Shown here: in pieces, positions 3,354 through 64,000 of the stretch
Layout of the letters: each line of letters begins with the position of its first letter
Position numbering within the stretch: position 1 is the stretch's first letter
Assembly (NCBI GenBank): GCA_964016885.1
Contig: OZ024741.1
Location: 107,818,001-107,882,000 of the forward strand
Origin: Eledone cirrhosa
Lineage: Eukaryota
Length of the DNA: 64,000 bases
Direction: 5' to 3'
Translations under genes and position numbers: made by a program
Notes under the pieces: generated by a model
What the model was told of the DNA's origin: nothing
Databases searched by the model: none
Seen by the model: only the letters and a program-made list of their open reading frames with translations

Positions 3354-3708
3354 GTGAAGTTTTTTTTACAAAATGAAAAATAACCGAGGTGTCCTACACG
3401 AGTGAAAGTATAAAGAAAAAGAGATGAAATCGAAAATGCAACTGGAGTCTTATTTTAAAAAAATATATATATATTTATTTGGTTCCTTTACCGGTTTCGC
3501 AGTTCTTCTGCTTTTCAAAAGGTGAGTTGAGATGGAGGGTCTGTGGTTTTTTTCACAGATGTGAGAAAAACCACAGACCCTCCATCTCAACTCACCTTTT
3601 GAAAAGCAGAAGAACTGCGAAACCGGTAAAGGAACCAAATAAATGTATATATTTTTAAAAAAAATAAGACTCCAGTTGCATTTTCGATTTCATCTCTTTT
3701 TCTTTATA
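3347..3708. mobile_element. Short PLE-type fold-back insertion (family A) with tail
   Basis: Arms 3409-3557 and 3560-3708 are reverse complements; unpaired tail 3347-3408; TA on both sides; HHR in each arm. Confidence 0.8.
3595..3632 (+). ncRNA. Minimal type I hammerhead, U3-A8 variant (copies 3485-3522 minus, 5974-6009 plus)
   Basis: ccuu UUGAAAA gcag-aagaa-cugc GAAA CCGG UA aagg; palindromic stem III. Confidence 0.8.
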
Positions 3709-5199: not shown

Positions 5200-6136
5200 C
5201 CTCACTGATTAACCCACACATAACACCCATACACACATATAACACACACACACACAACTCCCTCCCCCATTTCTACTAATAGAATCACTTTCCTACACAC
5301 ATATACACACACAAAATATATATATTCTCTCCATCTTAACATACTCCCCCCCCCCACACACACACAAACATAACACCCAGATACACCCACACACACACAA
5401 CTTCCTCCTCCATTTCTACTAATAGAATCATCTTCCTATACATACACACACACACAAGCACACAAATAAACATACATATCTTTACTTTCTTTATTTCAAT
5501 AGAAAATCTGAATTCTGACACCCCAGCGAACCAACCATATTCACTGAACCAGAATAATTCGCCATCCCATTTCTCTTGACCATTATCTTTTGCTTGTCAT
5601 AAAATTCTCTAAAAGGCGACAAAATAAATTCCCAAATACGGGCGCAAAATTTAATGAACTTGTTTACGTGACAATCATAATTTCATTTATAACCAATCAA
5701 ATTATATTTATTTAAAAAAAAGCCTTCGTGAGCCCCATTTTATAAAGTAAAAAGAAATTCAAACACTCATATATGAAAAAACAACCTGAGCCCCCCTGTT
5801 TGAAGAACTTTGTAACGCGAACTGGCGCGAAATTTATTATAATTATTGACCAACCAATCAAATTACTTCTCTAAAAACCTGGTGTTTCGAGCCACTTTTT
5901 TCCATATTAAACAAGTAACATTCAAAGACCAACCAGATGTGAGAACAACCACAGACCGTCCATCTCAACTCTACTTTTGAAAAGCAGAAGAACTGCGAAA
6001 CCGGTAAAGGAACCAAATAAATATATTTTTTTTAAATAAGACTCCAGTTGCATTTTCGATTTCATCTTTTTTTCTTTATACTTTCACTCGTGGTAGGACA
6101 CCTCGGTTATTTTTCATTTTGTAAAAAAAACCTCAC

Positions 6137-7631: not shown

Positions 7632-8432
7632 CTACATTTTAAATTTATATTTATATTTAAATGTTGAGTTCAATCTATGTCTGCAACAGCTGAATAAATT
7701 GGTTCGTAAATTAAGGGAATTTTTAGATTTTAATATAAAGAATATCTCCTCCGCGCAGAGGTCACATGTCTCAGAAGAGGAATTAAAAGGAATCCCTTTT
7801 GAGACTATATTCCAAACCATCGAATATCCAACTTTATCATGCTTAAGTTGCCAGAGTAACCCTGACAGCGATGTTGAGGATTTTTTATTTGGATCCGTGA
7901 AAGAATTTTTGTGATTATTATAGCGAAGTTTAAATTCTGTCGAGGTGGAACCAACATAATTAAAAGAATTTAAATCAGTTCTAACATTACAGTTGTATAT
8001 TATATTTTTAACTAAGCAATTGTTATTTAGCGGACATTTAGATCTATCTCTACAGTTACAGTTTTTTAGTTGAATATTGTTTAGGCTATTTTCGGTATTT
8101 TGGCTAGGTTTTAGATTCCTATTATTTATTCTATTATTATTTTGTGCTAAATTTTTGGTGGACGAGTACGTTAATTTTATAGTATGTCTATTAAAAATTG
8201 AGTGATACTTATGTGTTCTAGGGAAGCGTTTGTCAAGAGCATTAAAAAATAGTTTAGCGATGTGGGTTTTAATGTTTAGTGAGAAAGGGGGGGCAAACCA
8301 TATTATATTTCTAGTTCTATTTCTTTTCTGGTTTTTGAAATTATTGTAGTGCTTTCTATTATAGTTGTTAAAGTTGTTACTGTAATTAAAATTGTTGTTA
8401 TTTTGGTTAGTTTGTCTATTATCGATGTACAA
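7632..8432 (-). CDS. C-terminal fragment of PLE protein: linker plus GIY-YIG endonuclease
   Basis: IIWFAPPFS, CNC..CPL...CL, IIYNC..YVGST..FKLRYNNH, CDLC..E, CRH; homologous to the C-terminus of ORF 14188-16287. Confidence 0.9.
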   Translation of the reverse strand: MYIDNRQTNQNNNNFNYSNNFNNYNRKHYNNFKNQKRNRTRNIIWFAPPFSLNIKTHIAKLFFNALDKRFPRTHKYHSIFNRHTIKLTYSSTKNLAQNNNRINNRNLKPSQNTENSLNNIQLKNCNCRDRSKCPLNNNCLVKNIIYNCNVRTDLNSFNYVGSTSTEFKLRYNNHKNSFTDPNKKSSTSLSGLLWQLKHDKVGYSMVWNIVSKGIPFNSSSETCDLCAEEIFFILKSKNSLNLRTNLFSCCRHRLNSTFKYKYKFKM

Positions 8433-9540
8433 AATAAACTACCCTAAAATTTGCGTTGTTCCCAATCTTTTGAATAAATTTTTTAAGCTGGATAAACTTC
8501 TATAATAAATATAAGAGCATTTGTAGAATAAGTTTTGATTGATTTCTGCTAAATAAGGCTTGGTGAACAATTTTGGTTTTGTTTGCTTTTGACTCTGATT
8601 CTATGACCGATATGCGTGGCATACTATATTCTCTTGCGTCCCTAGATACTCTGTGGAGCGACGAAGATATTCTTGGCGTTTTAATTTTAATATTGATATC
8701 TGTTGTCTACTCTATGCTTGATCGATGATCATGCAAGTGAGGCTGGAATGTTATTTTAGATGTTAATGTATATCTTATATATTTTGTGTCTATATATATG
8801 TATATATGTATGTAAATGTATGTAGGGTGGAATCTTTTCTAACGCATTGAAGTTTTTCATGAAATATAAGAATCGGTGCAGCGTATCACGTAGGTTCACA
8901 TGTGCGTCTATATTTATCAACTTGAATTTGAGATAACCTTCTCTTTTCTCTTTTTTTCACGAGAATGCATATATACTTATGTTTGAAGTTTTATCTCAGA
9001 TTTTGCTTATAGACCTAAGAATTTTTAAACTGAGCATGTGGTCATTTTTTCACACATTATGGATATGTGTCTCATTCATGAATACTGATATTTACATTAT
9101 AATACCTAATTCATAAAAATTGATAATTCAAATGGATGAGACATAATATATTTTTAATATATTTTAAATATATCATCTTTCTTTCTTTTTCTCCTATACA
9201 CTAGTTTAACTGTATCCCTTCCCTTAACCTCTCACATATACGATGATCATCTGTCCAAAAGCAGCCTACTATATTTTTCACCTCCTCAATGTATTTCTCT
9301 CTCTCCTTGTCTCTCTATCTCGCTCCGTTGTTTTTCTTTACATACATCTCTTCTTCTTCTTTTTTTTTTTTTATTTTTTTTTTTTTATTTATATACATTT
9401 CTTCATCTTCTTCTTCTCATCTTCGTTTTCTTTCTATATAACTGTCATAACAGTTTCACTACCAAATCAACTTTTTAAATGGAAGTTGCATTATTACAAG
9501 GTATGTCACTAATTATTTATAAAACAGCTTATGTATTGTA

Positions 9541-10991: not shown

Positions 10992-11086
<95 letters not shown>

Positions 11087-11087
11087 C

Positions 11088-11814
11088 TGACGCCCTGGGA
11101 TGAAATATATTGTCTTTAATTCGTTGAAATATCCAAGACCCCCAGCAGACAGCTGATGACGGAAAATCTTCTCCCGTTCTTGCTTTCATCTTTTTATAAG
11201 TACACCTTATCCAGCAACTACATAGCCCGTTTATTCTTAAATTTATATCAAGTTTCGCTGTGACCTATCCGCTCTTCCTCCCTACCTATTTTATTGCTAT
11301 CAACTCTTCCCCTCTTCCTTCATCTTCCTCTCTCTCTCTCTGCTATCCACCTCACTGTTTCTCTCGCTTGCTCCTCTATCTTTCTCTTTCTCACTTAGTC
11401 TTGCGGAGGTCAGACGTTTTTTTTTCTCGTCCACACCAATCTCGAACTTGTGTTCAGCAATTGATGTCGACTTTAATTTTTCATTTTCTCCCAGTAGCTC
11501 ACACACATGTACTTCGGGTTTCCCTCTTCGGTTTGTTGCTTCCCGTTTTATTTCGCTTTATTTCGCTCTTTTTTCGCTTCTTTTTCCTTTTTCCTTCCCT
11601 CTTCCCTTCTGTTACTACATTTTTCTCTCCCTTTTCCTTTTTTCCAAATAACTTCCCCGAGTTATTGACGCCCTGGGGTGAGAGATATCGTCTTTAATGC
11701 GTTGAAATCTCCAAGACACCCAGCAGTCAACTGATGAAGGAAAATATTTACCCGTTCTTGCTTTCCTCTTTTTATAAGTACACCTTATCCATCAACTACA
11801 CACCCTGTTTATTC

Positions 11815-11995: not shown

Positions 11996-13130
11996 CTAGC
12001 AGAATAGCCCGGCGTTACTCGGGATTTGCTCTAGGGTTCTTATATATTTGATATATATATTTATCTTTATTGAACCTCGTGAAATAAATACGTTTATTTA
12101 TATTTTGTTATTGTGTATGCAAAAATATCTGTACACGAATATATAATTATATATATATCTCCTTATAATATATAACCAGCAATTTCTCTGTCTGTCTGTC
12201 CGACGCGTAGAGAGAGAGTGAGAGTGAAAGAAAGAGACAGACTACAAGAGGGGGATAGCGGGAGGGAGAGAGAGAGAGACGCTGGAAGATGGGAAGAAGG
12301 AAAGCTATGTCTTGCTGTCTGCATTACGATACATATATATATATACACACACACACTGAGCGCGTCATAATGACGTAATGCAGACAGCCAGACATACAGA
12401 CAGATATTATAAGGGCGCAACGTTATATCTATGTATCTATCTAAAAAGAAAGACTAAGAATTATATAGAGAGAACGCTAAATCGCCTAATGCGGTCCCTA
12501 GGGCATTGAAAATTTGAAATAATCTTTGCTCAAAACACTCACAGGACCATAAGTATTACATGCCTAAAATTTGAAAACAATCGGTTGGATGGTTCTCAAG
12601 TTTTAGTGAGCTGACAGACAGACAGACATTCTCTGTTTTAGATATATAGACTAGCAGAAAACCGCCCCATGAGCGGTTTTCTGCTAGTCTATATATCTAA
12701 AACAGAGAATGTCTGTCTGTCTGTCTGTCACCTCACTAAAACTTGAGAACCACCCAACCGATTGTTTTCAAACTTTACACATGTAATACTTATGGTCCTC
12801 TGAGTGTTTTGGGCAAAAGATATTTCAAATTTTCAATGCCCTAGGGACCGCATTAGGCGATTTAGCGATCTCTCTCTATAATTCTTAGTCTTTCTTTTTA
12901 GATAGATACATAGATATAGCGTTGCGCCCTTATAATATCTGTCTTTATGCCTGGCTGTCTGCATTACGTCATTATGACGCGATCAGTGTGTGTGTGTATA
13001 TATATGTATCGTAATGCAGACAGCAAGACATATAGCTTTCCTTCCCCTCTCCCAGCGTGTCTCTCTCTCTCTCTCCCACTATCCCCCTCTTTTAGTCTGT
13101 CTGTTTCTTTCACTCTCACTCTTTCTCTTT
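11996..13130. mobile_element. Non-autonomous Helitron-like elements arranged as a palindrome centred at ~12669
   Basis: 5' TC start TCTATATATCTAAAACAGAG at 12688 (plus) and 12650 (minus); hairpin+CTAG ends at 11996 and 12651-12687; (CTGT)n near the 5' end. Confidence 0.65.
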
Positions 13131-13918: not shown

Positions 13919-14187
13919 GTATAGGATTATCCAAGATGCAGTGATGGTTAATTACTACACTGGATATGGTTGACGTACGGTAAGAGGTTACTCTACGAGT
14001 TATGGAAGAATTGTTCAAGAAACTTAGTTCCTGATCCTTCAGTATTCCGGAGTGTATATAAAGAATGAATAATAACAGGTAGACATCATAAAAAGGACGC
14101 GCCAATCACTCGTCTGAATCATATGGTTTTAAATCATGTAAAAAACCACCTACAAACCCTCACCTCGAAGCTTTCGAACAGGACTTA

Positions 14188-16287
14188 TTGAAAACTACCA
14201 TGAACATTAAGTTCAACAGACATAGAAATAATGAGCTGCAGAACAACATGAAAGCACTACTCCGAAGATTGCAAAATACCAATGGAATTGTTGTGAAAGC
14301 TGACAAGACTTCTAACGTGTATACCATGGATATCGATACGTATAATAACTTCATACGCAACGAACTACACAAAAAATATAGAAAAACAAATGAAACTACG
14401 CTAGCAAATATTAACAACGAGGCATACAAAGTGGTAAAGAATCTCAAGATAGACGATAGAACCGAGCCGATTATACCCGCTACCCCCACCTTCAACCTGA
14501 AGGACCATAAGGTAAATTTTGACTCTAACCCTAAGATTAGACTTATATGCCCTTCTAAATCAGACATAGGGAAAATTAGTAAACATATACTTGACAGAGT
14601 AATAACTCAAGTGAAAAAGAAAATTGAAATTAAATTATGGGGCAACACTAGCGAAGCAATTCGCTGGTTTAATAATGTTAAGAATAAGAATAAATCTAAG
14701 TTTATACAATTTTACATAGACGAATACTACTCTTCCATCTCACCAAGCACTTTACGTAAGGCCCTATCGTTTGCTAAGGCCAATTCCGACCTAACGGAGG
14801 ACGAAATTAATATTATTCTCGAGGCTAGAAAAACCATTATTAAGTTCGATAACTGCTACTGGGAACGTAAGGACAGACCCACAAATTTCGATATTACCAT
14901 GGGTTCCAACGACTCGGCAGAGGTCACGGATCTCGTGGGAATTTACATAGCCCACATATTACATAGTAGATTTAGTAATCTACAGGGGGGGATATATAGA
15001 GATGACGGGCTCTTATTAGTTAATAACTTGAATAACCAAAATCTTGAAAGGCTACGGAAAAATATTAGAAAATCTTTTAGTGAACTGGGCCTAAAAATAA
15101 CATACGAATACAATCTTAAGGTAGTAAACTTTCTGGACGTAACTCTTAATTTAAATACCGGACAGATACGACCCTTCCACAAGGTAAATGAGAACCTTAC
15201 GTATATTGACTTTAACTCTAACCACCCACTCTCCATGATCAAATCAGTTCCCCGGAGTATTTCTCTTAGAATCTCTCGCCTATCGTCTAACTCTGATATT
15301 TTTAGCGAACATGCTGAATACTACAATAATGCATTAAGGAATGCTGACCACCGGGATACAATAGAATACATCGATAGTAATTTCCACAACACACATAGCT
15401 CTACACGTAATCAAGGTATACGTAACCGGGGGACTAAAACACAAGCACACACACACTATACTACCAGACATACTAATAATAGAAGATCACCACCAAATAA
15501 ATCACGTTGTAGAAAGTATATCTGGTATAATCCTATTTTTAATGCCTCGATTAGTACAAAACTATCTCTTTCATTCTTTAAATTAATCAATAAACACTTC
15601 CCTAGTTCCCATAAGTACAGCAAAATTCTGAACTCCAAAACTATTAGACTATCATACTCCACGGCACCAAACCTTGAAGCATACATAAAAAAACTTAACT
15701 TAAGGCAATTAAACAACTCTACAAAACAAAACATTTTAGTAACAGATGGGCAGAACGCAATATCTGCCTCCCAACCACTAAATGGGAGACGGGTATTGCA
15801 CAACCCACCTGTACCGCTATCACAACCTATCCATGGTATACCCGCTACCCACAACAAAGCATGTAACTGCCATCTACCTGAAAGATGTCCATTGCAGAAT
15901 GAATGCCTAAAGTCCAACATTGTTTACCAATGCACGGTTGAATCGGACGACCAGAAATGGTATTATATCGGATCTACCACCACATCGTTTAAATCTCGCT
16001 GGTACCGTCATCGATTCTCAATCAAACATCAGAATCACCGTTTTGTGACCACGCTCGCCAACAAGACCTGGCAACTCCGTGAACACAACCAACAGTTCAC
16101 CTTAAAATGGGATATACTTTCCAGCGCAAATGCATATCGGAGTGGTTTGAAGTACTGCAGGTTATGTAACCTTGAGCTATTTTACATACTAAAATCCAAA
16201 AACAAACTACTTAACGATAGAATTGAACGATCATTATACTGCAACCACAAACTAAAAGCTAAATTCTCTCACTATAAAATAACTTAA
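14188..16287 (+). CDS. PLE reverse transcriptase with C-terminal GIY-YIG endonuclease (5'-truncated; frame open from ~14098; possibly Hydra clade)
   Basis: KADKTSN, LKDHK, ITMGS.DSAE, YRDDG, NFLDV, SNHP; VYQC..YIGST..FKSRW..H; CRLC..E, CNH. Confidence 0.95.
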   Translation: MKTTMNIKFNRHRNNELQNNMKALLRRLQNTNGIVVKADKTSNVYTMDIDTYNNFIRNELHKKYRKTNETTLANINNEAYKVVKNLKIDDRTEPIIPATPTFNLKDHKVNFDSNPKIRLICPSKSDIGKISKHILDRVITQVKKKIEIKLWGNTSEAIRWFNNVKNKNKSKFIQFYIDEYYSSISPSTLRKALSFAKANSDLTEDEINIILEARKTIIKFDNCYWERKDRPTNFDITMGSNDSAEVTDLVGIYIAHILHSRFSNLQGGIYRDDGLLLVNNLNNQNLERLRKNIRKSFSELGLKITYEYNLKVVNFLDVTLNLNTGQIRPFHKVNENLTYIDFNSNHPLSMIKSVPRSISLRISRLSSNSDIFSEHAEYYNNALRNADHRDTIEYIDSNFHNTHSSTRNQGIRNRGTKTQAHTHYTTRHTNNRRSPPNKSRCRKYIWYNPIFNASISTKLSLSFFKLINKHFPSSHKYSKILNSKTIRLSYSTAPNLEAYIKKLNLRQLNNSTKQNILVTDGQNAISASQPLNGRRVLHNPPVPLSQPIHGIPATHNKACNCHLPERCPLQNECLKSNIVYQCTVESDDQKWYYIGSTTTSFKSRWYRHRFSIKHQNHRFVTTLANKTWQLREHNQQFTLKWDILSSANAYRSGLKYCRLCNLELFYILKSKNKLLNDRIERSLYCNHKLKAKFSHYKIT

Positions 16288-17391: not shown

Positions 17392-17689
17392 TATGAGTGT
17401 ATAATGAGTACAATGGTAACAATACACGCATGTGTACATACCCACCATAAATAAATAAACACCTACAGTTGACAAACTCTCTCTCTCTCCTACAGTCAGC
17501 ATATTAATGAAGCGCTTATGTTTGTATGGATATTTGCGTACCTGTAAAATATATGCATTCATGTTCCAAACACACACACTTTCATACATAAAAGAACATC
17601 TATATATTTATTTATAACTTCGTCTCGTTTACCGTCTCTGAATATATATAATTGTTTCTACTTTAGGCACAAGGCCAGCAATTACCCAG

Positions 17690-18360
17690 TGGTTGCACAT
17701 GGATTAAATATGATCAAAATAGTCCTTCGTCAGTGATTTTCCAATGATGGTTGGAAAATCACTGACGAAGGACTATTTTCTTCATATATAACCCATGTGC
17801 AACCACGCAGTATTCTTCTTTCTTCTCGTGTTTTTTATATATATTTACCTCGGCTGCGTTTGTCTGTTTCTCTCTTACTGCTTCCCCGCTCTCTCTTTTT
17901 CTCTCACCTTCTCTCGCCCCCTCTGTCAGTTACACTTTCTCTCGACTGACTTCTTCCTCACACTTCCACTCACTCACTCTCTGTTTCTCCCCTTCTCCCT
18001 TCCTCCCGTTTGGCTTGTAGTGGGTCTCTTCTTGCTTACATCTCACACACATCGGACGCTCTGTACCTCTCTCGCTAATTAAATCCACCCAGCTTAAGCT
18101 GACCGACAACCATGTTGCTTGTTTATTTTCCTATCTTCGGTTTGCTTTTATCCTTCTATGTTGTTTACTTGTCCCCCTCGCTTTACGCGAATTACTGGTC
18201 CCAATAACTTTTTTAGTTATTGCTCGCACCAACCTGAGGTATCTGATTTTTAATACGATGAAATACCAATGATGGTTAGAAAATCACTGACGAAGGACTA
18301 TTTTGATCATATGTAACCCATGTGCAACCACGCAGTATTCTTCTTTCTTCTCATGTTTTA
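17690..18360 (+). mobile_element. Second retrozyme-like direct-repeat element with 5' fold-back
   Basis: Repeats 17741-17835 and 18266-18360 (period 525); 17690-17744 is an inverted copy; CT-rich interior. Confidence 0.75.
18224..18329 (+). ncRNA. Candidate non-circularly permuted hammerhead ribozyme with K-turn
   Basis: GGUAU-C-ugauuuuu ... GAA-AUACC-AAU-GA ... gaaaauca-CUGACGA. Confidence 0.75.
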
Positions 18361-18379
18361 TATATATATATATATATAT

Positions 18380-21354
18380 GTAGGAGGTGAGTTTTATTGT
18401 AGTACAATAAAGCAATGCAGATATCGGATAAGAAGCACTCTACAGTTTGTGGGACTGGAGTATGCATAATATAAGATCAAAAGATGGTTAAAGGAGTTCC
18501 ATATATTTTATTATGCGCATTTCAAAAACAAACATCATCAAACAATAATATTTGCGTTTTCATCAGATAAAACAGGAGAACATGATATGAAGGCTAAAAA
18601 ACACTTGTTGATAGTGCAGTTTTAAATCAACATATGAAAAGTGGTTTTAGATTGATGTGTGATATTGGGAAAAATATTTTATTTAGAGAGGGGGGGGGGG
18701 GGAGAAAAGGATGAAAAGGGAAGGAGATGAGAGGGAGAGATGGGTGATAGAGAGAAAGAGATAGTTTTTATAACTGAGAGGAGATATATTTTATATAGAG
18801 GGGTTGAAAACCGTTGGAAGATACTGTATAAATTAAAAATTTTGAAAATTAACGAAGGGAGGATATGTGCGAGGAAAAAATATTTTATTTAGGGAGGGGG
18901 GGGGGGAAAGGATGAAAGAAAGGGGAGGAGATGAGAGTGAAGGTGGAAAGGGAGAGATGGGTGATAGAGAGAAAGAGATAGTTTTTATAACTGAGAAAAA
19001 GATATAATGTTTTAATATAGAGAGGTTGGGAACCGTTGGAAGATAATGTATAAATTAAAGGAATTTGAAAATTAACGAAGGGAAATTATGTATGAAGATA
19101 GAGAGAAAAAAATAATAATTGTGGGTCAATATTCTAACGTCGATTTCAAAATTAGCAAAGAGAAAAAAAGGTTTATGTGTAGAAGGATTTGAGAAAAATA
19201 ATGTGAAGTTAAAGTTTGTATATTGAATTCATATGTATTAATAATGAGTTCGTTGATGGGGAGAAAAAAATAATAATAAATTAAGGATGAAATTGAGATT
19301 AAAAAGATTTATGATAGAGAGAAAATAATAATGATTGCGGATGAATACTCAAAATGTCAAAAACAAATGTTATTGTTTTACGAGAAGATAGAATGAGGGT
19401 AATGAGTAAACGAGTATTATAGAGTGTATAATGCCCTTTAAAGTAAGGTAGATGGGTATATTTTAAAGAATATATGAGTATATATTAAAAAAAATATAAT
19501 AATAAATTAAGGATGAAATTGAGATTAAAAAGATTTATGATAGAGAGAAAAAATAATAATGATTGCGGATGAATATTCAAAGTGTCAAAAACAAATGTTA
19601 TTGTTTTACGAGAAGATAGAATGAGGGTAATGAGTAAACGAGTATTATAGAGTGTATAATGCCCTTTAAAGTAAGGTAGATGGGTATATTTTAAAGAGGT
19701 GTATGTATATGTGCCTTTGAGAAAAGATTCTAAATTGATAAAGAATTGAATATTAACTGTATACTTTGTGAAAAGTTCTATGGAATTTATGCAGGCAGAT
19801 AGAAAACAAATCTGAGCGTCTATTTATTATGGATTCTAGGTTAGAGATAATGGTAAATTTTTCATTTAGGCAGAGATTACAGATTTTAGATAGAGAGCTG
19901 TTCAAGTATGTTCATACTTGAACAGCTCTCTATCTAAAATCTGTAATCTCTGCCTAAATGAAAAATTTACCATTATCTCTAACCTAGAATCCATAATAAA
20001 TAGACGCTCAGATTTGTTTTCTATCTGCCTGCATAAATTCCATAGAACTTTTCACAAAGTATACAGTTAATATTCAATTCTTTATCAATTTAGAATCTTT
20101 TCTCAAAGGCACATATACATACACCTCTTTAAAATATACCCATCTACCTTACTTTAAAGGGCATTATACACTCTATAATACTCGTTTACTCATTACCCTC
20201 ATTCTATCTTCTCGTAAAACAATAACATTTGTTTTTGACACTTTGAATATTCATCCGCAATCATTATTATTTTTTCTCTCTATCATAAATCTTTTTAATC
20301 TCAATTTCATCCTTAATTTATTATTATATTTTTTTTAATATATACTCATATATTCTTTAAAATATACCCATCTACCTTACTTTAAAGGGCATTATACACT
20401 CTATAATACTCGTTTACTCATTACCCTCATTCTATCTTCTCGTAAAACAATAACATTTGTTTTTGACATTTTGAGTATTCATCCGCAATCATTATTATTT
20501 TCTCTCTATCATAAATCTTTTTAATCTCAATTTCATCCTTAATTTATTATTATTTTTTTCTCCCCATCAACGAACTCATTATTAATACATATGAATTCAA
20601 TATACAAACTTTAACTTCACATTATTTTTCTCAAATCCTTCTACACATAAACCTTTTTTTCTCTTTGCTAATTTTGAAATCGACGTTAGAATATTGACCC
20701 ACAATTATTATTTTTTTCTCTCTATCTTCATACATAATTTCCCTTCGTTAATTTTCAAATTCCTTTAATTTATACATTATCTTCCAACGGTTCCCAACCT
20801 CTCTATATTAAAACATTATATCTTTTTCTCAGTTATAAAAACTATCTCTTTCTCTCTATCACCCATCTCTCCCTTTCCACCTTCACTCTCATCTCCTCCC
20901 CTTTCTTTCATCCTTTCCACCCCCCCCTCCCTAAATAAAATATTTTTTCCTCGCACATATCCTCCCTTCGTTAATTTTCAAAATTTTTAATTTATACAGT
21001 ATCTTCCAACGGTTTTCAACCCCTCTATATAAAATATATCTCCTCTCAGTTATAAAAACTATCTCTTTCTCTCTATCACCCATCTCTCCCTCTCATCTCC
21101 TTCCCTTTTCATCCTTTTCTCCCCCCCCCCTCTCTAAATAAAATATTTTTCCCAATATCACACATCAATCTAAAACCACTTTTCATATGTTGATTTAAAA
21201 CTGCACTATCAACAAGTGTTTTTTAGCCTTCATATCATGTTCTCCTGTTTTATCTGATGAAAACGCAAATATTATTGTTTGATGATGTTTGTTTTTGAAA
21301 TGCGCATAATAAAATATATGGAACTCCTTTAACCATCTTTTGATCTTATATTAT
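18380..21354. mobile_element. PLE (family F) as a near-perfect 2.9 kb palindrome plus tail
   Basis: Arms 18466-19910 and 19913-21354; the right arm begins with the GIY-YIG C-terminus KICNLCLNEKF..INRRSDLFSICLHK. Confidence 0.9.
21248..21314 (+). ncRNA. Canonical type I hammerhead (copies 18506-18572 minus, 56719-56785 plus)
   Basis: uuuuau CUGAUGA ...stem II... GAAA UGCGCA UA auaaaa. Confidence 0.9.
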
Positions 21355-27544: not shown

Positions 27545-30500
27545 AGATCGAAGCTCAAATTATGGTCAGGAACTAGTCAGGTAATTAACTGGTTTGAGAA
27601 ATCGCAGAATAAGAATAACACTAAGTTTATACAGTTCGATATCTCTAACTACTACTCTTCGATCTCTCCAATTCTTCTAGGTAAGGCCCTAAACTTTGCT
27701 AGCTTACACACCCACCTTACATCTGAAGAAATTAACATTATTCTCCTAGCTAGGAAAACCTTAATTGAGTTCAACGGTGACTTGTGGACTAGGAGAGATT
27801 GGTCGGACAATGTCGACATCACCATGGGATCCACACGGACTCGGCCCAAGTGACGTATCTGGTGGGTCTCTACTTCCTCGACTGTCGCGGAGTGGAAATG
27901 CCCCACTTGGGAGGTGGCATTTACCGTTTTGTTTACTGTGTCGTTCCATAATAATAGTATGGTAGAGAGGGTGAGGAAAAAACTAAGCAAATTCTTCAAC
28001 AACATAGACTTAAGTATAGTATTTGAAGAAAACCTAAAGATAGTTAATTTTCTAGATGTTACACTTAACCTCAATTCAGGACTCTTCCAACCCTACCACA
28101 AATCCAACGTGAATTTAAATTATGTCAACGCAAAATCGAACCACCCTAGAATAGTCACTAACGGTATTAACAAAAGCGTCTCTAGTAGAATTTCAGGACT
28201 ATCTTCCAATGAAGATACTTTTGATAGGATCTCGAATTACTATAATAACGCCCTGGAACGCGCGGGGCATAGCGGGGGAATCTCATTCAAACGTCCATTA
28301 AATAGTAGTAGCAACATTGCCTGCAATAGCTTAGGCCCAAATAGTGACACTTTAGTTAACAGCAGGCGGAAGGCGAGGGAGGATCAATATAGACTTCATG
28401 TCGATGGTACCAATGGAAACAACCACCGAAGTACAAACACAGGGTCCGAGCACCGTACTGCCAGCGGAAATTCTAATTGTAACCTTAATTGTAGAACTGA
28501 TAAAACAACCGTGGAACGTAAAATAGAACGGGGGTCGGGTAGAGGGAATAGGGATAAATGTAGGAGGCGCATAGTGGATATAAGCCCGGCTATCGAGGGT
28601 AATCCCAATAACTGCATGGGGTACACCGCCCAGTAGACTTGGGACGATTCCGAACACCATATGGACACCCCAGGACACCATCGACTCACGGGCAGTTATC
28701 AGTTCTAATAGACCAATAGCAACCAAGGAGACAGTAAACACTAGTATAGATAATAAGAACAAGAGGCATCGGACCAGAACAATCCTGTGGTACAACCCTC
28801 CATACTCCACCGGCCTGACCACGAGTATAGCTAAGCTTTTCTTTAGGATCTTCGACAAATGCTTCCCTACATCACATAGATACTATAAAATATTCAACAG
28901 GAATACCATCAAGCTGTCCTACTCCACAAGCAGTAACATAGCTCAGAATATAGCTAAGCTGAATTATAGTAGATTTAGGACCGCCCAAGGGGGGACTAGA
29001 CATGGCAGAACTAATGGCAGCTCTATGGATGAACGGACTCATACACGTGAGGCGAGTCGGGTCACCCCAACCCCTGGGAACTTACCCATCGAGCAGACAA
29101 GAACTGAGACCCGACACCAGAAGTACCGTGGTTCCTCTGAAACTACCCAGGTCGATAACAAAAAATGTAATTGCAGGAACACCGCCACTTGCCCCATTGC
29201 TGGGAAATACCTCACCAAAAACATAGTCTACGACTGTAAGGTCTCCACTTTAGATAGAACCTTCAGGTATGTTGGGGCAATTGTCACTGAATTTAAGGAT
29301 AGATGGTATAATCACCGCCATACCTTTAATAGATTAGATATAAAAAAGAATTAGTCTGGAAGCTTAAACAACAGAATATAGAGCACTCCTTATCCTGGTC
29401 CATAATTTTCTCAGCACACAGCCTTATAACGGCAGCACGGTGTCTGTAATTTATGTATAGCTGAAACCTTTAATATTATTAGAGGCGGCCCCCTATTAAT
29501 AAATAGGAGAGCGGATCTTTTCAGCAACTGCCACCATAGAACCTCGAAAACTTTCCGCAGGATTTTTGGAAAGTAACCTACCACTAACTCTTCCCTTTTT
29601 ACCTTGGCCATAGAATTCTCTCAATTAGCAAAAAACAGACAATCACACACTCAGTAGTAGACAGCTAAGATCGTTTGCGCACTTACAAATGGTACTCGGT
29701 TTGTTTCCACAGAGTTTTCACAGCTGAGTGCACATTTACCACTACTTTAGAATACATAGTTAGTAAATAGTTAGAATGATTACACACTCAGTTAAGACCG
29801 ATTACGCGCATTCACCATTACTTTAGAATACCCTAACCATTGAGTTCTCTCGGTTAGTAAATAGTTAGACGTATTACACACTCAGTTAAGACCGATTACG
29901 CTCTTTATACATGACTCTACACACAGTAGCCGGTTTCTTTAGACACGGAGTTCCCACAGTTATGACTGGCCACGATCCTATCAATTGAACACTACACTAG
30001 GTTTTGATCCGTGATAATCTAACCATAGAGTGCTCACGGTTACTGTTTGGACAATATTACTTACATGGGCAGCACACATCCTCGAGGTTTTGCTATTCAT
30101 TTTTACTTTATTTTATTTCTGTGTTGAGTAACACACCTCCATCACTCAAACACCTATCTTAAAAGCCCAAGGGCCCATATGACGGGCAAACGCACATACT
30201 GACACCTTAACTGAAATACCCAACCGTACACAGAGCCCCTTGGTGGCCTACATGGCGGTTGCTTGCACGCACAGATTTGGGGACTCAGATTCTCAATGGG
30301 ACAACGGCACATACAGAGTTCGATATGAGCTGACTACTTGCTCTTCACATGGATGTGTATATACCAAAACATACACTATTTACAATTCAATCGATACACG
30401 TATAGCAGAACATTGAACTGAATTACTTGCGTGTGTATAGAGTTGCGGTTGATCCAATTTCTCCAATTTACATCGTCAAATTGAGATTTGACCAATATAA

Positions 30501-35143: not shown

Positions 35144-35290
35144 TAAGTATTTAGATGAGAGTATTTGATTGGCTTCTTCAAGCAAATGACGTAATGAAAT
35201 ATTATCCTTTTTGATATGATATCCGGTTCGTATGATATCAAACCAATAACATTTCGTCGATGAGATTTTTTGAAGGGTGGTGTATATATC

Positions 35291-35370
<80 letters not shown>

Positions 35371-35503
35371 TATATACACACGACCCTTCAAAAAATTTCA
35401 TCAACGAAATGTTATTGGTTTGATATCATACGAACCGGATATCAAAAAGGATAATATTTCATTTGCTTGAAGAAGCCAATCAAGTACTCTCATCTAAATA
35501 CTT

Positions 35504-48777: not shown

Positions 48778-51322
48778 ATGTGCCATAAAAAGCAAGGTCA
48801 CAATACTAATGCTCCCTGTGTATTTTCCCATTATAAATGCCCCACTTGGTAAAATAAAACATATTTTGTATAAAATAAATTATTGTGTGCCTTGCCTATA
48901 TCATGGTGATTATAGTGGAAAGTGTGATTATGTTGAATGAAATCATGAAAATGGGAAACCAAATATGACCATACAATAATTGTTTATTTTATTAATCCAT
49001 TATATTTAGTAAACCAGCTTTGAATATAAAGGCGTAAAAGGAAGAAACAAGTTCAATTAAGTTAACACCAGTCATATTTTTTTCAGAGTTTCTTTTTTGA
49101 AATCCGGGACTTTGCGACGATGAACTTCGACTACTTGAAGAACACACTGCTTCTCCTCCTCATTCTTGGTGATGGCAACACAATAAGTTATCAACTTGAC
49201 TGCTCTCTCTGCCTGATCGTTGACTACCTTGATATTGTGAACAACAGCACAGGCATTTTGATATGATGCTTGTGATGACCAAGCTGCAGGTGACAGCTCA
49301 AGCCAAGAATCGTTGAGACCAAGGAGATCGAATAGAAGCCTTGATTTCTTCCCAACTAGATGAGGCAGCTTCGTGGACGACTTCAACTCGGGAAATACTG
49401 GAGCACCACGGTCGAGAGGCCCAGACGTTTTCGTTTTGACAAGACGTTGGGCTATTTGTTTCTTCTCGGACTCTTGGACCGGACTTGAAAACAGCGCTAG
49501 CGGAATGGCTTCCTCAGTCATGTACCAAAGATGCCTGCTCAGAGCATGAGTGGCTGCCTGTGAGAGACCTCTGTCAACCTTACTGTACTGTGTCAACTCC
49601 ATGTAGAATTGAAGGTCATTGGATGGTTCATCAGCACACTTGACTGCTGTCAGCCAGTATCGCACGTAGAACAGAGCATTGAATATACAGATCCGGTGCA
49701 ACTTTTCCATTTTAGCTTGATCGTAATTGAGTCGCTCCCCAAATGCATACATCTTTGCACTATAGATGATTGTGGACATCCACCGAGCGTTATGATGTGC
49801 AGCAGGCAGCATCCAATGAATTCCACGAGGAGGGGTGAAACCAATCAACATCAACTCGGCACATTCTCGATAGTCGTCCCGTGGAAGAGAACTCATTTTC
49901 CCATCGCCGGATGTCAGCAAATCTTGAAGGAACTTGATGTTATCAGAACACAGACGCTTGAGTCTCCGGTCGACAATGTTCAATGTTTTAAAGTTGGTCT
50001 TGTCCGTGAGTGACACCCAATCTTTTATTAACTCCTTGAAATCTGGGGTGTCTGGACTGGACATTGCTCCGAATAGTTGTTGCCACACTGCACAGAAGAT
50101 ACGCTCCATGACATGGTGCCGACAAGCAAAATAAAACACCTTTTTGTTGAGTATCTCTTCTAGTTTCACGCAGGCACCATTTTTCCATCCAGAATTCGAA
50201 GCAGTTGTGTCGAAGACGAAGCCCACCACAGACCCATCAACATTCCAATCTTTAACAAGATCAAATGATGCTTTGGCTCGGGTGGTTCCAATGCCATCAG
50301 GAATTATGGGAACACCGAGGAGTTTACCTTCTCTGAAGTCTGGAGTTCCAGCAACTAGCACACCTAGCCTCTCGTGGTCACCAGGAATTATTTTGCCATC
50401 CCAATGCAAGGTAACAAAGTCTGGTACAGCAAATGTTTCCTTAATGTGTTTAGCCCCCACAGTTCTCATCTTCTTAGCAGCACGTCTGCTACTATTCTTG
50501 GAGAGAGTTGTGACAGTCCCACCCGCACTCAGTTCAATACGTAGAAGTTGTGCTGCTACAGATCCTGACAAACGCTTTCTATGGTTCTCTGACTCTCGAC
50601 GAGTCACAGAAACCTGATCACGCTTAAACTTTGAAGATACCTTTTTCTGGTAACCATTGTCTTCAGCACCCAGAGATACTTTTTTCTGGCAACGCAGAGC
50701 TTCGAGAAATGTAGCATCTTCTATTTTCTGTTCATTATTACGAAGACGGTCTTTCAAAATTTTCTTTTCAGCATCAGTATGTGCAATGTAGAAATACGTA
50801 TCCAATTCAGAAATAAATAGTGCTTCCTTTTCTTTGTTTGACTTAGAACCTTTGTATTTTGTAAATTTCTGTATTCACTGTACATGTTCATAATTTTCAG
50901 TTTCACTTTGTCTTTTCGTTGAGTCGCCACACCAGCTTTTTCCCACTGACTAACTACTTCCATCAGAAGCCTATCCACAATAGCACAATTGAAGCTCGCA
51001 TGCTTTTCGTGTTTCATAGGACCATCTTTCAGGTAGAAGAAATATCTTAGAACATCCCCTTTGTTGGTATTTTGTTTGGTGAAAAGGATGTAACATATTT
51101 CCCCAGGAGCCATATTTCTCGATCATCACAACGGAGCGAGTAGCTACAACTAGGCCCACTGGTTTCCGCCATTATTCTGCCAATATTAGGCAAGGCTTAA
51201 ATTGGTCTGAAATAATCAAAATTACATTATCAATTGATAATATACAAAATGGCATGAGAAAATGCATAGGGAGCTAAGAAAAAAGCACTTTTGTGTAAAA
51301 TGTGGGATTCTGGAACATCCTA
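48775..51322 (-). mobile_element. hAT-superfamily (hATm-like) DNA transposon
   Basis: 5' end TAGGATGTTCC at 51322; transposase ORF; no matching TIR seen at the left end. Confidence 0.7.
49072..51172 (-). pseudogene. DDE transposase, frameshifted N-terminus, 577-aa open C-terminal part (49072-50805)
   Basis: LHWDGK, FDTTASNSG, ACRHH..E, RDDYRE, ARWM, RHLWY, VVNDQAERAV. Confidence 0.85.
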
Positions 51323-52516: not shown

Positions 52517-52922
52517 TCACGGAGGTTTGAATCTTATGAATTTAGTGGCAATTCTATGTCTACAGAAGATAGATCTTTCTAACTTATTGTTAAGTAGCCT
52601 TTTTACATTTTTGAGAATATATAATAGCTCAAGATCACATAGCCCGCAGTGGGACATCCCTGTACTATAGGTTTTAGCAGCCGACAACTTCGACCAGTTG
52701 ATACTGTAGTTAGTGCTGCTGTCCTTCAGTTCCCATATTTTTTTGGCGAGGGTTGTGGAACCCATAAGTGCACGGTTTTTCATTGAGTGTCTGTGCACAT
52801 ACCATCTTTTTTTAAAAGAACCCGCGGTGGATCCTATGTAATTCCAGGTGGAGTTACCCGAGACAACCGTGCACATGTACACTAGGCTCGAATCGAGACA
52901 TCTGTTCGCCAATGGGCACCTA
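52517..52922 (-). CDS. PLE GIY-YIG endonuclease fragment
   Basis: CPL..RCL..LVYMC..YIGSTAGSFKKRWYVH..CGLC..E..CRH. Confidence 0.88.
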
Positions 52923-53258
52923 TCATAAGATTCAAACCTCCGTGAATCGAACCAACACAACATAGCTTTAAATTAGGATACCTACTACCCACAGAAATAT
53001 ATTCATTAAGTATACTATATCCTTCACAAGTCTATACCACACAAATGTCTGTAAGTACCTCATCAACCCACAAACTTATTCCTTCTCAGCTGCTGCCATC
53101 ATTTGATCCTAAATCCTAGTTTTTCTCAAATCACTACTACAATGTAACTTTACCTTCCTTTTGCCATAATTACAATTAGCACGCTTATCTCTTCGTATGT
53201 ATGTATATTTTTGTACGAGTGTATATTGATGTGTATGTATGTGTCTATGTACACATGC

Positions 53259-60326: not shown

Positions 60327-63300
60327 ATATTTCTTTTATTTGCCACTAGGGCATCAAAAGTGGGACAAGTACAAAGGGGGGAGTTTACACAAAAAGGCGT
60401 CCTCAATAAGGAGGAGGCAATAACAAAATATAAAAATAAAATAAGATATAACAAAAAATAAAATTTTTAACAAAATCCTCAATAGAGAGGAGGCGCCTTG
60501 GGGGGTCGCACACACCCCCGAAAAAAGTGTGCAACCCTTCTCCTCAGGAGCACAGAGAAGGGGTGCTCCCTTGGTCTTTCATCTTCCTCACCTATAGTCT
60601 GATGTAGAGTGAAGGCCCATTCACACGGGCCATTCTCGCCACTTTCACCCATCTTTCATAGAAACGGCTGGGGTGCAGCACCTCTCTCTCCATCCTGATC
60701 CTTCTTCCGAAATGATATCGGAAGAAACGGACCAGTTGTTGGCCAGAGAGAAAGGTGCCTGACCTCAGTCCTTTCAGACGCGTCCACCATACAACCTCTT
60801 TCGCCATGGCTATTACGCACAGAAACACCGCCTCTGCTTCATCTTTGAAGGGGGGAGGCGGCTTGATCATTACAATAGACTCGGTGGTCAACCGGATCGG
60901 TTCCACCCTTGACAGCAGTTGTTCGACATAGCCCCACAGATCGGCTACGCCCGAGCAGTGTACCAATGCGTGTGCAACGGTTTCCTCGTCGCACACGCAT
61001 CTGGGACAGATCTTTTTGGCGGGGTCCCTACCCGGGCGCCCGTGTCTGTAGAGCCTTTCTCGAACGGGTAAAGCCCCTCGGTAGCACTGCCAGGCCAGGG
61101 ACTTCTGGAAGTTGTCCATAGGTCCCGGGCTGAATGTCCTACCGAACAGGCTGGCCAGTTCGTCCTCCTCCATGTCTAGGGCTTCTCCGAGGGCGTCGTC
61201 GCACCTGCTGCGTACCAGCCCTCTATAGAATGTTGCGGTGGAGTCTCCACTGATAACCGGATCCGCCTGCCAGAGGGCGGTGAGCGCCTGGGCACACCCA
61301 GTGTGCCAGGCGCCCAGTTTTCTCGGTCTTTGCTTGACCCAGGATTGCAGCTCGGTGAGTGAGACGAGTCTGGGAAAGGTTCGCCTCACAAACGAGGCCC
61401 ACACCGGTTGTCCGGTGAGGAATACGTAGAGGTGCCGTAGCCTTAATGCGTGTTTACGCATCATTAGCCACGGCATCCCCAGCCCTCCTTTCGAAGGGTG
61501 TTGACAGCAGATGGATCTCCTCACCATAGGAGCCCGCCTCTTCCAAAGGAATTGGAAGAGCGCGCGCTCCATCTTGGTGAGGGTTTCCCTTGGGCAGGGC
61601 ACTACGGTCAGGCGGTAGTAGATGACGGACGCTATGTAGGTGTTTGCCACCTCCGCCCGACCTTTCAGGGATAGTTTGCAACTGGCCCACTTCTGGGTCA
61701 GTGCAAACACCCTGTTCGTAACCTCCGCCCAGTTTTTCTCCACCTGGAGGTCCGGTCCGAACCAGACCCCGAGCAACTTCACCGGGCCCTCCGTCCAGCG
61801 TCCGACGACGCCATCGGAGGGCATCGGTCTGCCCCTCCACGTGCCGAGTTGCAAACCGATCGACTTGTCCCGGTTCAGCTTAGCCCCTGTGAACTTTTCG
61901 TACTCCTCCAGTAAGGTGCCGACCGCCTCGATTTCGGAGGCCGTCGACACCATTACTGTCACGTCATCGGCGTAGGCCGACACCGCTTTCCGCAATCCCG
62001 GTTCCAAAGGGATGCCCTGCAACAACTCCAACTTCCGCAGTAGTGGCTCGAGAGTCAACACATACAGAAGGGAGGAGAGAGGGCACCCCTGTCGGATGGA
62101 CCGCGCGATTTTGAACGGCTCCGAGAGGTAGCCGTTCACCTTGACCCTAGAGCAGATGCGGCTGCTGTGCATAGCAGTGATCCAGCCCCTGAAAACGGGT
62201 CCGAAGCCTGCCGCCGCTAGCACCGCATCCAGGTAACCATGGTCGACCCTATCGAACGCCTTAGATTGATCCAAGTTGATCAGAGCCCCACCAAAGCCGG
62301 GTTCGTTCCCAACCCTCTCTATGATGTATCGCATGAGGTGGAGGTTGTCATGGATGGACCTGGACGGGATAGCGCATGTCTGCACATCTCCCACCAGGTT
62401 GCCCACGACAAGCGCCAACCTCTTTGCTAGCACCTTGGCCAAAATCTGTAACTCTGTATTTAGCAGAGTTATGGGCCTGAAGTTACTTATTTCGTCCCCC
62501 TTGTTCTCGTCCTTCCTCACTAGCGTGACTACGCCCTTGGTCACAGTACAGGGAATTCTCCCATTCTGTTGCCAGTTGCAGTAGACCGCCTCGAGGAGAT
62601 CGGGGAACAAGTCCGGCATAGCTAGATATAATTCGTAAGGAAGACCATCGAGACCCGGGGATTTGCGTTTGCCGCATTGGCTCAGCACGTCCTCTATCTC
62701 AGCGGCCGAAATCGGCTCCTCGCAGGACTTCGCCTCCCTGTCCGAGAGGCGCGGCAGGCCGTCGAGGTATGGACCGAAGTCCACGTTCCCAACCGGCTCC
62801 CCGCCCCTCCCGAACAGTCGGGCAAAGTGCCTTTGAAAAGCCTCACACATCTGCTTAGGCTCAAGAATCGCCCGTCCATCCAGGTCTCGCAAAGACCGGA
62901 TGGTGGATTTAGTTCCACTGTTGGCCTCTGTCACGCGGGCCCAGCTAACAGCTTTGGTCCCCTCGTTCCCTAGAGCACGTATTTTACTTCGGACAACGCA
63001 GCCTTCGTGCTTCGCGTCGAAAAACTGGCTCAAAGCCGTTCTCGACGCTAGCACTCTGGCCACGTCGCCGCTTCTAATTGCCTCTTCTACTCTATCTATT
63101 AGCTCCCTTTCCTTCCTATTCCTATCCGCAGCTAGAACCTTACTAAATTCTATCGAGACTACTCTAATCTCTCTCTTTAGAGATACCCACCACCTGCTGT
63201 TGACGATCGCTCCAGTCAACCGTTCCTTAACTAACGTACTAATCCGATTCCTGTAGGCTCTACTTGCCGGCAAGGACAAGTTGAGCTTCCAGTAACCGGG

Positions 63301-64000
63301 GCCCTGTCTATGAGTTCTGTCAAGGTTGACCATGCAGGTCACTAATTTGTGGTCTGAATAGCCAACCATGCGCATTTTTGGACAACTTAAAAAGTCCTTA
63401 TCCTTAATTCTAACTAAGAACCTATCTAGGTACGACCTAGATGATCCGCTACGATTTGCCCAAGTCCAGGTTGGCGCAGTCGGAAAATCTAGTCGATATC
63501 TATCGGCCAGGTCAAATCGACCGATTAACCCTTTGAGGCTATTACACCCCTCTCTATCGGGGCAGGCCCTACGTAGTCCCAGCGTGCATCTAGGATACCA
63601 TTCCAGTCCCCCACTAATAGCAAGGAGCGGGACGTCCCCAGAAAAGTCTCCAGACGATGGAAGAAGTCCGGCCGCATTGACCCGAAAGGGCCGTAGGCGG
63701 CTACCAACCTAAACGCTCCGCCTTTACCACTGCCAAGGTCCAGAACCACTAGTCGACCCTCCGGGTCCAAATGTACCATCTGTGTTGCGAGACCCAGATG
63801 TTTTTGCAGCAGAACGACAACTCCACCCCCACCTCCGGGCTGACAGAGAGATGCGTGCATCTCAAAGTCATCAAAGGTGGGGGCCAGCTGTCGCACGTTG
63901 CTGATCCGGGCCTCGCAAATAACCATCACATCTATACGTTGTGACCTGAGGTCATTTAGAAGCATTGCTTGCTTCCAAGTTGAGCCCAGGCCACGCGCAT
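60327..64000 (-). mobile_element. Tx1/L1-clade LINE (ORF2 and 3' UTR; continues beyond window)
   Basis: APE endonuclease (ICE, YGP, GDWN, LDR, SDH), RT, Cys/His C-terminus; AATAAA near the 3' end. Confidence 0.9.
60592..63375 (-). CDS. LINE ORF2 reverse transcriptase (N-terminal APE part frameshifted, 63525-63965)
   Basis: KSPGLDG, FRPITLLN, LDQSKAFD, RQGCPLS, YADD, CPRC..ET..HALVHC. Confidence 0.93.
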   Translation of the reverse strand: MRMVGYSDHKLVTCMVNLDRTHRQGPGYWKLNLSLPASRAYRNRISTLVKERLTGAIVNSRWWVSLKREIRVVSIEFSKVLAADRNRKERELIDRVEEAIRSGDVARVLASRTALSQFFDAKHEGCVVRSKIRALGNEGTKAVSWARVTEANSGTKSTIRSLRDLDGRAILEPKQMCEAFQRHFARLFGRGGEPVGNVDFGPYLDGLPRLSDREAKSCEEPISAAEIEDVLSQCGKRKSPGLDGLPYELYLAMPDLFPDLLEAVYCNWQQNGRIPCTVTKGVVTLVRKDENKGDEISNFRPITLLNTELQILAKVLAKRLALVVGNLVGDVQTCAIPSRSIHDNLHLMRYIIERVGNEPGFGGALINLDQSKAFDRVDHGYLDAVLAAAGFGPVFRGWITAMHSSRICSRVKVNGYLSEPFKIARSIRQGCPLSSLLYVLTLEPLLRKLELLQGIPLEPGLRKAVSAYADDVTVMVSTASEIEAVGTLLEEYEKFTGAKLNRDKSIGLQLGTWRGRPMPSDGVVGRWTEGPVKLLGVWFGPDLQVEKNWAEVTNRVFALTQKWASCKLSLKGRAEVANTYIASVIYYRLTVVPCPRETLTKMERALFQFLWKRRAPMVRRSICCQHPSKGGLGMPWLMMRKHALRLRHLYVFLTGQPVWASFVRRTFPRLVSLTELQSWVKQRPRKLGAWHTGCAQALTALWQADPVISGDSTATFYRGLVRSRCDDALGEALDMEEDELASLFGRTFSPGPMDNFQKSLAWQCYRGALPVRERLYRHGRPGRDPAKKICPRCVCDEETVAHALVHCSGVADLWGYVEQLLSRVEPIRLTTESIVMIKPPPPFKDEAEAVFLCVIAMAKEVVWWTRLKGLRSGTFLSGQQLVRFFRYHFGRRIRMEREVLHPSRFYERWVKVARMARVNGPSLYIRL

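Follow-up and report, generated by a model that had tools for sequence, protein, structure and literature searches.

A predicted noncircular hammerhead ribozyme with a kink-turn helix and a four-way junction in a likely Naiad-derived retroelement of Eledone cirrhosa

The window analyzed here, 64,000 nucleotides of Eledone cirrhosa DNA (assembly GCA_964016885.1, contig OZ024741.1, positions 107,818,001 to 107,882,000 of the forward strand), carries at 18197-18299 of its plus strand a predicted type-SGC hammerhead ribozyme of seven helical elements, in which the full catalytic core is laid out in the block order cleavage site-GAAA-CUGAnGA (S-G-C). We consider it probable that this caged, noncircular hammerhead would cut itself after C18243 and process the RNA of a non-autonomous retroelement likely derived from Naiads. 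Noncircular hammerheads, earlier known from environmental sequences only, are here found in more than 20,000 copies in the genome of an animal, and the architecture predicted for them was not encountered in print in a literature available mostly as titles and abstracts.

Core and fold of the motif

The CUGAnGA, GAAA and UH elements required of a hammerhead core are all present (Table 1). So are the stem III proposed in a previous sequence-only reading of this DNA (GGUAU/AUACC, at 18238-42/18263-67) and, after stem I, its CUGACGA at 18287-93; the extent given there, to 18329, was too long, the motif ending at 18299. A descriptor combining the site-GAAA-CUGAnGA order with paired stems I and III matched the window twice, with predicted cuts after 11109 and 18243. 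In 100 dinucleotide shuffles it matched 0.03 times on average and never more than once, and no shuffle (0/100) equaled the stem lengths of the 18243 copy. Of the 11.1-11.8 kb family, the copy at 11.7 kb was missed by the descriptor because of its two stem I mismatches; it is 56% identical in register to the family-2 motif. All three window copies share TTAATNCGNT before GAAA, as had been claimed. An Rfam scan of the window returned no ribozyme or hammerhead family among the matches listed (150 of 216), and a type II (GSC) reading from the GAAA at 18260 was rejected on inspection, no stem I hairpin being found.

Two changes are private to the window copy, A18255 and A18278 (G in the family), each giving a C.A mismatch, and this copy may therefore be less active than its relatives. 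Three contig sets from one sequencing sample confirmed the family variants and yielded nothing further.

Table 1. Positions in the window of the predicted ribozyme, its related copies and the carrier element
Feature	Position	Strand	Remarks
Closing helix P0, 5' strand	18197..18201	+	pairs with 18295-18299
Hairpin H, 7 bp, arm of the stem II four-way junction	18202..18222	+	from pair counts
Distal stem II (IIb), 5' strand	18224..18228	+	pairs with 18254-58
Helix beyond the K-turn, 5' strand, and K-turn UGA	18229..18237	+	by connectivity, would equal the I-II interaction helix of Eckert et al.
Block S: stem III 5' strand, U16.1, H17	18238..18243	+	cut predicted, by analogy, 3' of C18243
Stem I 5' strand, 6 conserved bp	18244..18249	+	two more bp possible in the window copy
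UUAA linker, stem I to stem IIb	18250..18253	+	conserved at 96-100% across 80 full copies
IIb 3' strand and U11.1	18254..18259	+	A18255 private, G in the family
Block G: GAAA and stem III 3' strand	18260..18267	+	from sequence and pair counts
K-turn: bulge AAU and GA-U; 3' strand of the helix past it	18268..18279	+	A18278 private
Block C: stem I 3' strand, CUGACGA (18287-93), A10.1 (18294)	18281..18294	+	A18294 pairs with U18259
Closing helix P0, 3' strand	18295..18299	+	pairs with 18197-18201
Family-1 copy, 5'-truncated	11085..11170	+	predicted cut after A11109
Family-1 copy, 578 bp downstream	11641..11743	+	two stem I mismatches; predicted cut after 11687
Inverted 5' segment, Penelope-type fold-back	17689..17744	-	pattern as in the Fig. 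2 legend of PMC8557442
Host element, 1.2 units of a 525-bp noncoding tandem repeat	17741..18358	+	
(TA)n tract at the defined 3' end of the element	18359..18379	.	family-2 3' ends

Pairing was counted in 15 real copies from different clusters, out of about 100 collected: 92.6% of the 524 cells are paired, and a double change is seen in 19 of the 35 pairs. In stems I and III, next to the core, 97-98% of cells are paired and double changes are present (stem I, 97.8% with double changes in 5/6 pairs; stem III, 2/5); the helix 18229-34/18274-79 beyond the K-turn reaches 94% (5/6), hairpin H 94% (3/7), IIb 85% (1/5) and P0 84% (2/5), and the lone 10.1-11.1 pair shows a double change as well (1/1). 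None of 500 shuffles scored as high on four of five pairing measures and slid controls paired at 27-49%, whereas the fifth measure, further pair types, did not rise above the shuffles (293 of 500); since the subfamilies are related, this control overstates significance and the pair counts are not probabilities. The two window families do covary as claimed, and the covariation extends across many more subfamilies. The sequence-only pairing scheme is likewise confirmed, but it lacked both P0 and the 10.1-11.1 pair, which forms in 102 of 107 distinct copies (A-U in 50, G-C in 25, G-U in 19 and U-A in 8, with 5 unpaired) and in 72 of 80 full copies chosen by their 3' half.

The core itself is retained in most copies. 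Among 80 full copies chosen without block S, U16.1 is found in 75 and an H17 other than G in 78, stem I forms five or six of its six pairs in 77, and four or all five pairs of stem III form in 74; among copies chosen without block C, CUGAnGA occupies the expected place in 20 of 23.

Stem II departs from the ordinary form. The five bases after 10.1 pair with the strand 5' of the hairpin, and stem II therefore consists of one core pair followed by a four-way junction of P0, hairpin H and IIb. The hairpin previously described as preceding the motif is there, with its counterpart at 11647-67, but the description was incomplete, as it is actually an arm of this junction. Similarly, the upstream helix read as UCGC/ACGA is in place, but one of its pairs in that form is a C.A mismatch confined to the window copy; the family reads UCGCA/UGCGA. 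The proposed 8-bp stem I can be drawn, with UGAUUUUU at 18244-51 pairing with GAAAAUCA at 18279-86, yet only 6 bp are conserved: pairs 7 and 8 are in competition with both the UUAA linker and the helix of the K-turn, and some subfamilies cannot form pair 7.

On the other side of the core, stem III would extend past the K-turn as a helix of 6 bp, joined at its far end to IIb and stem I. The K-turn helix and the four-way junction would stand in for the contact usually made between loops I and II. The box C/D K-turn recognized earlier is formed here by UGA at 18235-37 with AAU-GA-U at 18268-73, and its sequence fits what we take to be the box C/D consensus, namely a 3-nt bulge, tandem G.A/A.G, U.U and then Watson-Crick pairs. 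The tandem GA is found in 11 of 11 subfamily representatives and the U.U is not universal. The K-turn is nevertheless not obligatory: in family 7 (L253) its place is taken by three Watson-Crick pairs and a plain 3-nt bulge, from which it follows that the bend is conserved and the K-turn itself is not. Family 7 keeps its helices in new sequence (III 5/5, I 6/6, IIb 5/5, P0 7/7, and an 11-bp hairpin) and is without the lone pair (A.C), both bases pairing with 5' strands instead. Diverged families of the window motif lie at L253 1525-1650 and at L239 about 5740-5850, and in L253 the junction is displaced by one pair, resembling a four-way junction that has undergone branch migration.

It is important to note that the minimum-energy single-strand fold differs from this model, with a nested structure preferred (z -1.34) by a program that cannot score crossing helices; as computed, this preference counts against easy folding of the caged model.

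Might the motif be a product of chance or a dead relic, its likeness among copies reflecting recent repeat amplification and not selection on the fold? Young families are indeed 96-99% identical inside, which makes within-family conservation uninformative, and individual copies have decayed. Between subfamilies, however, compensatory changes occur in every helix, four pair types alternate at the lone 10.1-11.1 pair, and the window architecture recurs, by eye, in Naiads of three phyla. We regard this explanation as exceedingly improbable and largely refuted.

Carrier element and proposed RNA processing

The predicted ribozyme is carried by a tandemly repeated noncoding unit of 525-529 bp in family 2 and about 525-630 bp across element families, each family-2 unit with one hammerhead and the 5' ends varying. 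In the window the element spans about 17689-18358, its inverted 5' piece included, and its first unit is 5'-truncated inside the ribozyme, with CUGACGA at 17762-68. The first (TA)4 follows the C block by 71-85 nt in all 39 family-2 copies measured. The family-2 unit has no recognizable coding frame, and no ORF combining an N-terminal GIY-YIG with an RT was found in it. Adjoining the 5' end of the element, 17648-17689 is a short piece of a very abundant repeat, which has the highest summed depth and many matches in the window; in a copy elsewhere, at L036 218-337, internal element sequence is fused directly to the region of the predicted cut, where the two have a short word in common.

Across the 3.0-Gb genome, a pattern of blocks S and G gave 7,133 matches (14 in the control) and one of blocks G and C gave 24,051 (219 in the control), while DNA searches with four families returned at least 1,215, 1,857, 1,704 and 1,412 first-look candidates. 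A scan of metagenome contigs gave 44 matches, none of them paired (0/44) and all attributable to chance, and one of viral sequences gave none.

We propose that the RNA of each unit would fold as a single caged hammerhead and cut after H17, that read-through transcripts of tandem units would be resolved into ~525-nt monomers, linear or circular, and that a Penelope-type RT/GIY-YIG protein would copy these monomers in trans into (TA)n sites. The copying of unit-length RNA by a Penelope-type protein follows the mobilization by Penelope-like elements that has been proposed for animal non-LTR retrozymes (PMC7229834; 10.64898/2026.07.22.740005).

The 5' ends of genomic copies offer a possible footprint of such cleavage. 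In 100 copies chosen by their 3' half, 11 of the 16 5' ends scored between -45 and +15 lie downstream of the predicted cut (P=4.5e-4), the ends having been called by eye and four unassigned matches excluded. Without six junctions in TA runs the figure is 5 of 10 (P=0.09), and none of the 16 falls exactly at the cut. In a separate set of secondary copies, five 5' ends lie between -6 and +2; a further tally is confounded by TA microhomology. Stalling of the RT on structure would also explain this pattern.

The units being tandem, the core could alternatively be assembled between two of them, or between two molecules, in ordinary circular topology as in minimal Penelope hammerheads, and Penelope-like element hammerheads are reportedly active as dimers. 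This arrangement appears very unlikely to us, as stem III is not palindromic and all seven helical elements, including the helix joining the 5' and 3' ends, close within 103 nt. Published type SGC ribozymes (HRIMA-1 and variants), moreover, cleave in vitro as monomers (PMC10085705).

A more serious alternative, though still an unlikely one, is that the fold is real and selected but that its cleavage is slow or depends on a protein (an element ORF product, or Snu13 on the K-turn), the structure serving mainly as a platform for recognition and priming by the RT. For the hammerhead of the Penelope element PAc, in vitro cleavage requires protein and is dispensable for insertion, uncleaved RNA being the insertion substrate (PMC11167929). 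Consistent with a platform, the cut site is spanned intact in 80 of 100 copies, the 3' end has a set position about 75 nt beyond the core, and the minimum-energy fold is unlike the model. Against it, the whole catalytic core, with U16.1 and a non-G H17, is kept across families about 44% apart, as selection for catalysis predicts, and the plain bulge that replaces the K-turn in family 7 indicates that a K-turn protein is not essential.

Likeness to Naiads and the search for an autonomous partner

Naiads were reported without a canonical hammerhead, with only unexplained "core" and "half core" marks (Craig et al. 2021, PMC8557442), and (TA)n is a common Naiad target, with tandem and inverted 5'-truncated insertions (PMC8557442). 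We parsed by eye the last ~280 nt of 53 of the 54 Naiad consensi in the supplement of that paper. Naiad_Obim and Naiad_Ovul end in the fold found in the window, complete with K-turn, hairpin, IIb and P0, and their hairpin has the 8-nt loop common to several subfamilies here; their linker is shorter, however, and 10.1-11.1 is a U.C mismatch in both. Three Acropora consensi, one from Beroe and, more weakly, one from Euprymna show, again by eye, the SGC order without a K-turn, and the lone 10.1-11.1 pair is absent in both octopus and coral Naiads. In seven nematode consensi (six ends and one Pristionchus passage, by eye) the order is instead CSG with an ordinary stem II, a type published from two metagenome sequences only (PMC10085705). 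The remaining 40 of 53 ends hold no parseable motif in their last ~280 nt; a few arthropod ends show, by eye, a core with its context cut off, and no core was noticed by eye in the last ~280 nt of bivalve and hemichordate ends.

The element described here thus shares with Naiads (PMC8557442) the (TA)n preference, the tandem and inverted 5'-truncated insertions and the octopus 3'-end fold, but it has no ORF, and narrow tests of the genome found no autonomous Naiad. Of two narrow Naiad-derived patterns run on the genome, one gave a single chance match and the other none. The window motif is absent at the 30 GIY-YIG loci examined, out of at least 150 listed; those among them whose frame stays open through the domain are elements with a C-terminal EN, as are five long-ORF loci, and 18 stretches of 7-10 kb around diverged motifs contain no linked Naiad ORF. 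Naiad descent therefore rests on the likeness of the 3' ends, which makes the element a likely Naiad-derived non-autonomous retroelement and would also point to a cephalopod host.

Elsewhere in the window, a 731-aa Penelope-like open frame at 14092-16287 (+) has, by eye, RT-like and C-terminal GIY-YIG-like motifs, and fragments related to it occur at 7632-8438 (-), 27854-29354 (+) and 52517-52972 (-). About 1.4 kb of unrelated repeats separates the end of this frame from the element downstream. A Pfam search with the four Penelope-like ORFs of the window found nothing. A 1038-aa frame with LINE-type RT motifs occupies a GC-rich stretch at 60592-63708 (-) and has a close copy in L159, and a 600-aa open frame at 49072-50874 (-) presumably resembles a DNA transposase. 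Near-perfect long inverted repeats with weak Rfam microRNA scores at 3518-3599, 12627-12711, 19869-19953 and 35216-35445 are probably fold-back ends of repeats. From 58074 downward (-) there is a loosely matching candidate for a canonical type I hammerhead, its stem I having 5-6 bp.

We incline, if only slightly, toward the view that the closed-cage hammerhead is a new architecture, in which stem III turns back at a K-turn and so locks stems I and II, with stem II formed as a four-way junction, and that it is the missing ribozyme of Naiads across animal phyla, in SGC order in cephalopods, corals and ctenophores and in CSG order in nematodes. The SGC motif likely explains why Naiads were reported without hammerhead RNA: the puzzle of their proliferation without the canonical ribozyme gains a testable answer, and standard descriptors are suggested to miss the motif. 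If the proposal is true, noncircular permutation would be the norm for an ancient clade of retroelements and not an environmental oddity, and host Snu13 would possibly tune cleavage; should Snu13 bind, the motif would be a natural protein-tunable hammerhead.

Comparison with known hammerheads and retrozymes

Eckert et al. (2023) treat the hammerhead as three blocks, C, G and S, among whose arrangements type SGC is noncircular (PMC10085705); their noncircular types came from environmental sequence data, the genomes of known organisms yielding only one bacterial type-GCS candidate. The permuted topology noticed in the sequence-only reading is this published type SGC. In a literature seen mostly as titles and abstracts, with subscription papers largely out of reach, Eckert et al. 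is the sole source found on type SGC and no noncircular hammerhead was found in an animal genome or in Naiads, while PMC13725137 and PMC10162972, in the parts available, add nothing on noncircular animal hammerheads. The word "kink" is absent from the text and supplement of PMC10085705, so far as these were available.

The window motif does not follow the circular order of canonical types I, II and III (CGS, GSC, SCG). Its blocks run S, G, C with crossing stems, and the far ends of stems I and II are tied by the helix 18229-34/18274-79, which from its connectivity we infer to be the equivalent of Eckert's I-II helix. Block C is not uninterrupted, only one stem II pair following CUGAnGA where type SGC has several. 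Given this one-pair stem II and the four-way junction, we class the motif as a variant of type SGC. A natural hammerhead with a one-pair stem II has been reported to cleave fast (PMC3088659).

Like the animal non-LTR retrozymes (PMC7229834; 10.64898/2026.07.22.740005), the element consists of noncoding tandem units of low GC with one hammerhead each. Those retrozymes, however, carry canonical type I ribozymes in 150-450 bp units, with cleavage and circular RNA demonstrated, whereas the units here measure about 525-630 bp and the predicted ribozyme is noncircularly permuted. Type CSG of Eckert et al. (2023) belongs to the same cyclic class of block order as the window motif but its stem II has several pairs in the ordinary way and it lacks a K-turn cage; the order in the window motif is SGC.

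With published type SGC the motif shares the S-G-C order, the intact core, the short linker between stems I and II and the extra I-II helix. How stem III reaches that helix was left open by Eckert et al. (PMC10085705), and the K-turn or bulge would be a natural solution, in what is moreover a compact target for crystallization. The difference here is that the extra helix is joined to stem III on both strands through the K-turn or bulge, that strands from the 5' end complete a four-way junction, and that the motif is genomic, in more than 20,000 copies.
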